DNA of 64,000 bases. It comes from Bilabrum cf. latius (taxonomy: Eukaryota). The stretch spans positions 558,001 to 622,000 of the forward strand of contig OZ237765.1 of the NCBI GenBank assembly GCA_965178125.1, read 5' to 3'. The position numbers were made by a program, and so were the translations under genes. Every line of letters begins with the position of its first letter. Position 1 is the first letter of the stretch. The notes under the pieces are model-generated. The model saw nothing but the letters and a program-made list of their open reading frames with translations, did not search any database and was not told the DNA's origin. Shown one piece after another: positions 228 through 64,000 of this stretch.

Positions 228-2406
228 ATGCGGTCCATTATATCTCTAATTGCATGTTCTGTATCAATTCTCGGTATTGGTACCGAGTGCGTGCGCCACG
301 GCACTGGGACAGGCCGATTAAGATTCAATGCAAAGCGCATGGGCGCTCTCGAGACTCGCGTGCTATCCGAGGCTACATCTGGCGATGTTGGGGACGCAAA
401 AACGCTTGATATAACGACAAGAAAAGGCGGAGATGAGCTCGATGCCATCAAAGGGATGGATTACCTGGGTAAGTGCTATTAATGTCGAATGTCTACAATG
501 CGGCTCACTTGTAGCCCCACTTCTTAAAGCTAGCATTCCTTGTAACCCATCGAATGCAGGCATGGGGATGAACATGATTTTAGGGAGCCCAGGTAGCGGT
601 GCAAACGGGGCCAAAAACGACTTTTGGCACGAAGCCATCATGAGCCTGGTCTTCGGGCAGTCCTCACAAACCAGAAGCGGCATGGCGCTCTAGCCTGTCG
701 GGGGGCAAGCAGTGCCACTAACGAGATGTTTCAGATCATCATCCTCTTCGAAGTTCTCGACTACCGAGGAGCTGCAGGAGAGCTACAAGCAAGACTTTTC
801 CGCCGGTTCGGAAGGCGGTGTGCCAGGGCTGCCTGCCGGCTTGGAGTTTAGCTTTTCGCAAGAGATGCAGGACTTCAACGAGCGCGTCGCGAAGTCGGAC
901 ATTTCAGAGTATCGCACATCGGTGACTTGCACGTATTACCTGGTGCGCATCGACGACGGGGAGGCCGGACGAACTGTGAAGACCACGCCCCGATTCAAGC
1001 AGGCCGTGGCAAAGGTGGCAGTGGACAAACCCGAAGTCGAGGATGTCGTCAGGTTCATTGACGAGTTTGGCACTCATTTCGCGCGCGAGATCACCCTGGG
1101 AGCCTCTCTCACCCACGTGATGACCATCGCGTCAGACGAGGTGGAGAAGATCGAGAGCAAGGGGCAATCCGTCAGCGCGGCGATCGACGCTGCCATGATC
1201 AAGACCTCGACTTCGGGCGACTCAGAGATCAAGAAGATCGCCAAGCACCTGCAGGAGCACATGCAGACGCGCACGGAAACGATCGGGTCCGCACCGCCCA
1301 GTGCGGACCCGATGGATCCGGAGGCACCATCGCAGCTGGCCGAAGCAATGGCCGACAACCCCGCACCCGTGCGGGCAATACCTGCTCCGTTTTACGAAAT
1401 CCGCAAGGAAGACGGCGACGGCTTCGTCATGACCCGGGATTAGTACAGCACCATGATCGACATGTACATCAAGTACCTCAAGGGGAACCAGGAGGCCGAG
1501 CTTCTCAGGAAGCCGAGGACTTCGATCCGGATCGGCGACGAGCTGCGGTCGGACGAGGAGGATGCCAAGAAGCGCGCCGTGTTCGCCCCGGGCAAGTCCA
1601 CCATCCTCCAGCTGGAGACCAACGGCGAGCTGGTGCTCAAGAGCGCGGCGGGCCACACGCTCTGGAAGGTGACCCCGCCCGCCAAGATGCACGGCAAGGA
1701 GCTCAAGGGACCATTCGCGCTGAAATGGCAGGAGGACGGCCACATCGTGCTGAAGGGCAACCTCAAGTCGCCCTACTGGTCCATCGACGTGAGCCCCGAC
1801 GGCTGCACGGGTGTGATTCCCTTCGATCTCACCGTGCGCAAGTCGGGCGAGTTTGTCGTGCAGTCGGCTGACAGCCGCGTGATGTGGAAGTCCGACAGCA
1901 AGCTCGGGCAGGAGTCCACGAGCAACGACGGCCAGCGTGGTGCCATGTGCCAGCACGGAGAATTCAAGGGCATGCTGGAGCGGGGTGACTTCATCCGAGC
2001 TCCGTTCCACCAGGTCATCAAGGACAGGCACAGTGGCAAATCGACCGGGTTCAAGCTCGAGCTCACCGACAACTGCGACCTGTACCTGTATCGGCACCAT
2101 GACTCCCAGTGGATCAAGGTGTTCCGCCAGTGGGCCACTCACGACCAGGGACAGGAGTGCAAGATGCAGCTGCGCAAGGACGGGGAGTTCCAGATCCTCG
2201 ACAGCGCCGGCCCGCACTACAGCTCCAAGACATCGGATTCCAGGTGCTCCGCGCACAGGGTGGAAAAGGTGGAATTCATGTTGGGGCGCATAATGTTGGA
2301 CGACAAGGAAAGGAATACTGTGGTGCAATCCAAGATGGGCGACGTTCCGAACTTTTCGGTTGGCCATGGGTGGGAGGCATTGGAGTCGTGCGCTGCATCC
2401 TCATGA
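228..2406 (+). CDS. Secreted MACPF (perforin-like) protein with C-terminal bulb-type (B-)lectin repeats; 2 exons (228-468, 560-2406), 2 in-frame TAG
   Basis: Hydrophobic signal-like N-terminus. Splicing a GTAAGT...TGCAG intron (469-559) gives GMDYLGMGMNMILGSP, a typical MACPF start. MACPF signature FIDEFGTHFAREITLGA. Lectin-like repeats LQLETNGELVL..LW, WQEDGHIVL..YWS, LRKDGEFQI. ORF pieces 433-693, 712-1443 and 1453-2406 share one frame, are separated only by TAG (691, 1441) and end at TGA. Confidence 0.85.
469..559 (+). other. Spliceosomal GT-AG intron (91 bp) in the MACPF gene
   Basis: Donor G|GTAAGT, acceptor TGCAG|G; removal joins frames 228 and 433 and restores the D-Y-L-G-x-G motif. 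Confidence 0.8.
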
Positions 2407-2521
2407 TCCGGATGATCTGCGAGGATCGTTGCGGAACGCAGCAGCCTTGCGTGAGCGGAGAAAGAGTAACGTACGCTGTATTGTTAACCTGCACTCTAGT
2501 TCTTTTGCGCTCGAATCACAT

Positions 2522-63300: not shown

Positions 63301-64000
63301 GGACTCAACGTTTTTGCCGACTACGACGATGACAAGGGCGCACCCGGCGAGCGCAAAACCGAGGCGGTGAGGCAGGTACCGGCCGTCTAGTACCAGTACG
63401 ACAATCTGCTTAATCGGCTTGAGCTGCTTGCGATTGGAACTGCAGCTATCTCTCTTCTCATGGTGCTCGTGGTGGAGGTGGAAAGGCAGGTGCAGAGCTT
63501 AGAGGCCTATGGCATCGGCATCGGCATTGATACTCCAGCCACCTGGGTCATCATCATCAGCAACATAGGTCTGATCATATTTGCCATTAGCAGCTTCTGG
63601 TAGGAGTTTAGGGGCTTCGTGGCGAGTGCATTGAGTGCAGGAACACTAGCAATGGGTACCGCTGGTTCCAAGCTCGACGGACCGTGCCAGGTGTGCGGGT
63701 CAGTGCTGGGCAATGCAGCTGCAGGGTTTGCGTACATTTTCTGCTGCATCTGCATATGTTCGTCATTCTGCAAGAGCACATTGACCAAGCCACGATTCCA
63801 TGGGGCGAGCCGCCTTGGTCACGGCTATATGTCTAGCGGCCCCACCTTGACTGGGCATCCGGTGGGTCGGGGCACTATCGGCCCCTCCTTGGCTGGGCCC
63901 CCGGTGGGTCGGGGCACTGGTGGCCCTAGGTAGGCTGAGACTCCTGTGAGTTGGGGCACTGGTGGCCCCACCTTGACAGGGCGCCCGGAAGGCCGAGACA
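45331..64000 (+). CDS. Giant (>6,200 aa, 3'-partial) intronless cell-surface protein: signal peptide, FG-GAP-like repeats, Thr/Pro and Ser/Pro linkers, IPT/TIG repeats, Cys-rich region, multi-pass TM domain; roughly 65 in-frame TAG
   Basis: All + strand fragments from 45331 to the window end share one frame; I read the gaps and found only TAG, never TAA or TGA. Motifs: MNLRARAFIVVALCSALA; GDLFGASFA, LIVGAP, GSLLGASLAVLGD, FGASLAALG; PRVTSVQPTEAGPGETITITGEGFG; CLPCPVGAVC, CVEGHTGILCQKCELGYF; KIMFTHV*TI...FP, FLYNGL...YWEAVNLLRK, PY...NRLE. Confidence 0.85.
52385..52605 (+). repeat. Coding mucin-like repeats (PSTTASATPT)n
   Basis: Imperfect repeats of ACGCCATCTACTACAGCCAGCGCC...; a second Ser/Pro/Thr tract lies at ~55930-56118. 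Confidence 0.75.

Follow-up and report, generated by a model that had tools for sequence, protein, structure and literature searches.

Few nuclear genetic codes separate UAG from UAA: in the portions of the literature available to us, on which all statements about published codes in this text draw, they are those of a rhizarian, Iotanema, Scotinosphaera, Protocruzia, some phyllopharyngeans and one oligohymenophorean (PMC5304391; PMC11687900). The metamonad Iotanema spirale (Fornicata) reads UAG as glutamine (Gln, Q) in its nuclear code and uses UAA and UGA as stops (PMC5304391), and phyllopharyngean ciliates and Protocruzia tuzeti likewise read UAG as Gln and keep UAA as a stop (PMC11687900). 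UAG has been reassigned to leucine (Leu) in the rhizarian exLh and to serine (Ser) in Scotinosphaera (PMC5304391; PMC11687900). Codes in which UAR, that is both UAA and UAG, means Gln occur in many ciliates, hexamitin diplomonads, Ulvophyceae, Streblomastix and Amoeboaphelidium (PMC11687900), and the codon table with TAG as Gln was named 'genetic code 15' for crAss-like phages (PMC9523058). Here we describe a stretch of 64,000 nucleotides (contig OZ237765.1, positions 558,001 to 622,000; hereafter the window, whose own coordinates are used below) in which TAG is a sense codon of long eukaryotic genes on both strands and, as judged from aligned homologues, most likely always means Gln. We put at roughly 90% the probability that the window is nuclear DNA from a GC-rich, intron-poor protist that reads UAG as Gln in cytoplasmic translation. 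A preliminary description of this DNA, made from its letters, had proposed the same meaning for TAG and had called reassignment of UAG only to Gln rare, naming Iotanema; Protocruzia and the phyllopharyngean ciliates are to be added to that short list (PMC11687900).

The window is like Iotanema in that UAG alone has passed to Gln and UAA lies outside the reading frames. It differs in supergroup, being placed with stramenopiles by a tree of its NPC1-like protein, in a GC content of about 60%, and in its terminator, the primary one of Iotanema being UAA whereas frames that end inside the window do so at TGA in 10 of 10 cases. Phyllopharyngeans and Protocruzia also give only UAG to Gln and use it widely as a sense codon, but these ciliates end 86.9-98.3% of genes at UAA (PMC11687900) whereas the window uses TGA, and the window is ordinary long multi-gene DNA whose NPC1 groups with stramenopiles and not with ciliates. 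Under the UAR codes, too, Gln captures a stop codon, presumably via a mutated tRNA-Gln anticodon; TAA is sense there, whereas a ciliate-type UAR code does not describe the window, which has no in-frame TAA in 16,709 codons. With exLh and Scotinosphaera the window shares the reassignment of UAG alone, but Leu and Ser lie 39.4 and 36.8 log-likelihood units below Gln in the residue comparison given below. Code 15 has the codon table that explains the window, there in phages and here in a eukaryotic nuclear genome. The code itself is therefore already known, and what is new, within the literature searched, is the lineage and the type of genome, GC-rich and with UGA as terminator. No report of nuclear UAG reassignment in stramenopiles was found in the full-text literature searched, which holds few subscription journals and no supplements, and the accessible part of a 2024 review of stramenopiles contained only a reference to a mitochondrial code.

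With the standard code the longest frame in the window has 1088 codons; when TAG is read through, the longest frames have 6262, 3136, 2404 and 1421. Summed over the ten longest frames, the standard code gives 6597 codons, reading TAG gives 17,966, reading TAA 6698 and reading TGA 8445. The stop-to-stop frames obtained by reading TAG contain 121 TAG in 11 frames. Some of these are probably non-coding, namely those preceding the first ATG of the NPC1, VPS33 and giant-gene frames, the TAG-TAG pair right before an ATG in the frame 13749-23156, and the three in the frame 41900-43372, as the X domain of PI-PLC lies in a different frame there. In nine trusted gene models, taken from their first ATG onward and with the PI-PLC frame and the frame 37189-38790 left out, 16,709 codons hold 114 TAG, 0 TAA and 0 TGA, confirming the earlier claim that TAG is a sense codon. 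The manual count of more than 100 in-frame TAG on which that claim was based stands at 114 in these models, and some of the TAG it may have included, upstream of an ATG or in PI-PLC, are probably non-coding. All 13 codon coordinates quoted in the preliminary description were right: single TAG at 6523, 13165 (minus strand), 33753, 55237, 56686 and 59623, TAG-TAG pairs at 48823/48826, 58819/58822 and 61792/61795, and CAG in the sister-repeat codon at 57496. Taking TAG as Gln, the Gln codons of the nine models are 114 TAG, 479 CAG and 160 CAA, a TAG share of about 15%.

When the same genes were read in the two shifted frames (about 16,700 codons each), 41-53 TAA, 143-153 TAG and 309-377 TGA were encountered, TAA and TGA together numbering 350 and 430. 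Because TAA and TGA are absent in frame and abundant off frame, selection must keep the frames open against these two codons only. At the off-frame density, the chance of a 6262-codon frame without TAA and TGA is about 3e-64. This longest frame belongs to a giant surface/membrane protein gene (45331..64000, plus strand) that runs off the window; it holds 67 TAG and no TAA or TGA, and 66 of the TAG lie past the first ATG in a protein of more than 6200 residues. Decoding of UAG must be near complete, because this one frame requires 66 TAG to be read in succession.

By manual enumeration, about 58 of the 114 TAG are flanked by same-frame segments that match Pfam, PDB or homologues, and Pfam matches span TAG in a single frame in three genes. 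The kinesin gene (6166..8553, plus strand; Pfam Kinesin E 1.8e-75, with PDB alignments; ending at TGA) has 3 in-frame TAG, two of them in the motor region (6523 and 7084), and its profile is matched from 1 to 327 of 327 unbroken across TAG, so that the position inside the motor domain claimed for TAG is upheld. The second is the NPC1-like sterol transporter gene (9178..13359, minus strand; Pfam Sterol-sensing, Patched and NPC1_MLD; PDB NPC1 E 1.8e-94; ending at TGA), with 5 TAG past its first ATG. The third is the gene for VPS33, of the Sec1 family (2522..5611, minus strand; Pfam Sec1 E 2.8e-33; ending at TGA); its TAG at 2891-2893 (residue 986) lies upstream of, and in frame with, the C-terminal segment 1003-1056, which aligns with residues 542-597 of human VPS33A, in agreement with the earlier remark that a TAG precedes the C-terminal motif of this protein.

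The same pattern is found in an independent metagenome contig (L001; 3969 bases, 59% GC). Its standard-code pieces have 145-481 codons, and with TAG read it is a single frame of 1322 codons, open at both ends, with 9 TAG, 0 TAA, 0 TGA, 53 CAG and 10 CAA. Over 932 columns this frame shares 50% identity with the C-terminal half of a TmcB-TPR membrane protein of 2400 residues encoded in the window (28149..35351, plus strand; Pfam TPR_TmcB; 16 TAG; ending at TGA). Two TAG stand at the same position in both genes (33528-33530 and 35253-35255 in the window, residues 1797 and 2372), and four TAG of the window gene align to Q in L001. In addition, a metagenome contig of 18,048 bases carries four colinear fragments of a related giant gene. 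Because of this 50%-identical orthologue and the colinear fragments, one or two environmental contigs in all, UAG reassignment is probably common to a group of related organisms and no quirk of a single strain.

These data also bear on whether the TAG are translated at all. That they reflect sequencing or assembly errors, decaying pseudogenes, splicing or U-to-C editing would fit with the absence of any run on record as RNA among the sequencing runs listed as holding the giant-gene stretch, and with changes of frame in some genes, such as that for PI-PLC, which imply that some introns or frameshifts exist. We consider it extremely improbable nonetheless, since two studies have runs whose contigs hold an 18,787-base stretch of the giant gene, with its 67 TAG, at 0 differing letters (the first of the two may itself be the source of the window), since the frame is kept across every TAG, including those inside contiguous domain matches, since the interruptions are only TAG and never TAA or TGA, which neither decay nor random error would yield, and since L001 repeats the pattern independently. 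In principle more than 100 sites could be edited, but such a case is not known to us for nuclear genes. Two further runs gave little: X6 has only a 39-base match, X7 has 35 short contigs, 34 of them at least 99% alike, and as the label 'RNA?' was guessed, no conclusion on expression is drawn.

The other two stop codons behave differently from TAG. Every frame that ends inside the window ends at TGA (10 of 10), as the preliminary description had reported for its genes. In-frame TAA is absent from the 16,709 codons of the gene models, whereas 32-51 would be expected from the NAA:NAG ratios of 0.28-0.45 seen in Gln, glutamate and lysine codons. UAA is thus not a sense codon, and because TAA is kept out of the frames it is presumably still a stop. 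Beside this, a second in-frame TGA follows within three codons after 3 of the 10 TGA terminators, those of the MACPF gene (2404-2418), VPS33 (2510-2524) and the frame 37189-38790 (38788-38793).

With only 10 gene ends visible, a smaller share of genes that end at TAG could have escaped notice, and in two genes a TAG stands 32-36 codons before the TGA, with tails that lack homologue cover beyond the contig end. A double meaning, in which TAG is Gln inside genes and a context-dependent stop at some ends, as in karyorelict ciliates or Condylostoma, might account for this. We regard it as unlikely: TGA is used at 10 of 10 ends, the TAG-TAG pairs in the middle of the giant frame speak against it, and the L001 alignment continues beyond residue 2372 in the TmcB-like protein, which is a TAG that L001 shares.

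For the identity of the residue, we compared 23 TAG sites in three genes with the closest homologue. Q is found at 9 of them; the others have E, L, R and S twice each, and H, M, A, K, W and P once. In the same alignments, Q matches 85 of 156 Gln codons (CAG or CAA) and appears at 54 of 3474 non-Gln sites, so that the tabulation of residues at TAG that the preliminary description had proposed does come out enriched for Gln in these three genes. Were TAG always Gln, 11.5 Q matches would be expected, against 9 seen. Log-likelihoods calculated with substitution frequencies from these same alignments are -60.7 for Gln, -82.4 for arginine, -82.5 for histidine, -86.5 for glutamate and -100.1 for Leu, placing Gln 21.7 units ahead of the next residue and supporting the earlier assignment.

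The 23 sites come from three sets of alignments. An NPC1 fragment of 94% identity, taken from a public assembly (P0001), has Q, E and Q opposite the TAG at 10558-10560, 10369-10371 and 10306-10308, and fragments 48-72% identical to the giant protein have E, R, A, S, H, Q, Q, L, M, Q and K at TAG sites. The TmcB-like TAG sites face W, Q, Q, TAG, S, L, Q, P, R, Q and TAG in L001, the two shared TAG standing outside the 23. At the TAG at 59623-59625 (motif FTHV-x-T, where the membrane region of the giant protein begins), the column has Q in 87 of 94 homologues, with S in 4, A in 2 and V in 1; of the arguments for Gln in the preliminary description, that from this motif, quoted as KIMFTHV-x-TI, is strong. 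At 59770-59772, all four closest homologues (72, 68, 48 and 34% identical) have Q, and fragment P0122 ends there. Short homologous fragments (40-199 residues) of giant genes end exactly at a Q (5) or TAG (2) of the window gene in 7 of 17 cases (p = 5e-5), counting fragments whose alignment reaches within three residues of their own C-terminus and taking a background Q plus TAG frequency of 6.5%. Ten of these fragments were looked up and lie on contigs of 1.7-18 kb; for three of them, and for a cluster mate of a fourth, the contig is 18,048 bases long. With contigs of such length, the fragment ends are stops inside contigs. Public protein collections hold pieces of 40-200 residues of a giant gene, so the prediction that standard annotation would shred these genes has come true there. 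The decisive evidence for Gln is thus the NPC1 fragment P0001, the related giant-gene fragments and the metagenome orthologue, data that the preliminary description did not have.

Its other arguments for Gln proved weak. At the kinesin site (I-x-VYVRVRP, x being TAG) the PDB kinesins KIFC1 and KIF15 have R and K, and at the NPC1 site (AQQQ-x-FFD) the column has E 37, A 22, D 17 and Q 8 of 111. The IPT-like repeats are about 30% identical, with S, T, G, V, L and R facing their TAG. Q-rich neighbourhoods carry little weight either, because tyrosine is enriched as much as Gln: neighbour composition does not discriminate, with Gln 1.26-1.46 fold and tyrosine 1.2-2.1 fold near TAG. PDB alignments at TAG sites were uninformative on the residue (R/K and S/V in kinesin, E in NPC1, and for VPS33 a TAG in an unaligned insert), and in distant NPC1 homologues the TAG columns fall in variable or gapped regions.

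The lineage was placed with the NPC1-like protein, whose best named matches are from Cafeteria roenbergensis and oomycetes. In a maximum likelihood tree of 38 sequences, the window sequence falls in a clade of 14 with Cafeteria roenbergensis and unnamed sequences (Shimodaira-Hasegawa-like approximate likelihood ratio test support 98), and this clade is enclosed in one of 28 (support 100) that also holds oomycetes. The organism is most likely a stramenopile related to Cafeteria, going by this one gene. The window contains no rRNA, and no Rfam family was matched anywhere in it. We lean slightly, at little better than even odds, towards a wider claim, that this is the first nuclear code change in stramenopiles and that heterotrophic flagellates allied to bicosoecids read UAG as Gln throughout a whole lineage, with this genome and at least one environmental relative, only 50% identical in an orthologous protein, as its examples.

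A mechanism can be suggested by analogy with what is established for other UAG or UAR reassignments (PMC11687900; PMC5304391). A tRNA-Gln with anticodon CUA, one base from the CUG isoacceptor, would decode UAG and not UAA; as CUA would pair with UAG only, TAA would stay out of the frames. The release factor eRF1 would have lost efficient recognition of UAG, so that it no longer competes there, and would keep that of UGA and presumably of UAA.

Several observations weigh against the reading of UAG as Gln in a stramenopile nucleus. The local codon-usage score puts the TAG-bearing frame first for only 77 of the 114 sites, this score being a weak classifier for low-complexity, GC-rich coding sequence. 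No gene here ends at TAA, which is taken for a stop because the reading frames lack it. The stramenopile placement comes from one gene, and both a tRNA-Gln(CUA) and an altered eRF1 are postulated by analogy, the 64-kb window containing neither a tRNA gene nor eRF1. UAG could conceivably also be edited in the transcript, the RNA and protein levels being deduced here from DNA. As to the residue, 14 of the 23 TAG sites face a residue that is not Gln, among them a W within a well-aligned membrane helix and an L of a fragment with 72% identity; this share is close to the rate at real Gln codons, yet it leaves room for some ambiguity. With homologues of 25-45% identity only, one per site, lysine and Gln tie. 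At reciprocal sites, where L001 has TAG, the window has G, A, K, E, Q and E, that is, Gln in 1 of 6.

The W in L001 and the tie between lysine and Gln, together with the E at one of three TAG sites in the 94%-identical NPC1 fragment, are what would be expected if TAG were sense with some other residue (glutamate, arginine, lysine, tryptophan or Leu) or were read by a mixture of near-cognate tRNAs. This is very unlikely given the pooled likelihood, in which Gln leads arginine by 21.7, glutamate by 25.8 and Leu by 39.4 log units, and given the column at 59623, which has Q in 87 of 94 and no E, K, R, L or W; Gln remains the preferred assignment. The TAG that faces tryptophan (TGG) in L001 is at 32742-32744 (residue 1535 of the TmcB-like protein, in the helix VVVTV-x-TRSF). 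It is unexplained if UAG is strictly Gln; TAG and TGG are one base apart.

The giant protein has a signal-peptide-like start, Ser/Thr/Pro-rich linkers, a DUF7630-like Cys motif and a multi-pass membrane region. Its residues 4481-5680 have 367 homologues at E ≤ 0.001 in a full HMMER scan, and one homologue (P0131) has 4 TIG domains plus DUF7630. The family is a large one of protists, with members that combine TIG domains, the Cys motif of DUF7630 and a membrane region that weakly matches TRP channels (PF06011). When residues 1-5000 of the giant frame were searched through a word index at the 'shorter' lengths, this gave nothing at E ≤ 1e-10, the words probably having been sampled too thinly. 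Diverged copies of the gene lie on contigs of the same runs, and the genome therefore has paralogues. The identical 18.8-kb stretch is found in runs X1 and X5, which come from two studies and bear different organism labels.

Among the remaining genes, a MACPF-domain gene (433..2406, plus strand; Pfam PF01823 E 6.8e-19 at frame residues 144-348; ending at TGA) has 2 in-frame TAG, at indices 92 and 342, one of them inside the MACPF domain. A giant gene for a WD40 and BTB protein of 3100 residues (13749..23108, minus strand; ending at TGA) has WD40-type Pfam matches at residues 432-607 and a BTB match at 2904-3007 in one frame; the frame holds 15 TAG, two of which, the pair just before an ATG, probably precede the true start. 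A TAF1-like gene (35360..37534, plus strand; Pfam DUF3591 E 4.3e-30; 6 TAG; its frame ending at TGA) overlaps the frame 37189-38790, a different frame, by about 350 bases, and an intron may connect the two into a single gene. A class-3 lipase gene (39857..40966, plus strand; Pfam Lipase_3 E 4.4e-26; ending at TGA) has no TAG. The PI-PLC gene (41665..43372, plus strand) extends over at least two frames, with PI-PLC-X (E 8.9e-45) in the frame 42018-42908 and PI-PLC-Y (E 1.4e-19) in the frame 41900-43372, and its N-terminal part, in the frame 41665-42198, looks EF-hand-like by eye. Since its domains lie in different frames, short introns or shifts of frame do occur in this genome, which is thus not free of introns.

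The gene-free gap between the WD40/BTB and TmcB-like genes contains a satellite array (23425-25299) of a 123-base unit in 15.2 copies, with 98% matches and a higher-order period of 493 bases. The satellite is flanked by direct dispersed repeats, 23002-23151 recurring at 25835-25984 (100% identical) and 25495-25794 at 27581-27880 (99% identical). The first of these overlaps the 5' end of the WD40/BTB gene, so the first 50 or so codons of that frame are probably non-coding. A 33-base tandem repeat at 39032-39166 (4.1 copies) codes for GGGGHPAGGPQ units in the frame 38324-39568.

A change of code that arose in a GC-rich genome with UGA, not UAA, as terminator would be a poor fit to models in which AT pressure first removes the stop codon. 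Any further case puts to the test how UAG and UAA can be uncoupled at the level of release factor and tRNA, and a GC-rich stramenopile with UGA as terminator would add an independent origin in a supergroup without one in the literature searched. Standard annotation cuts the genes of this genome and of its environmental relatives at every TAG, and gene counts, protein lengths and orthology for the lineage will therefore be wrong unless code 15 is used. If the reassignment holds, such organisms would be candidate hosts for giant viruses in which TAG is Gln.

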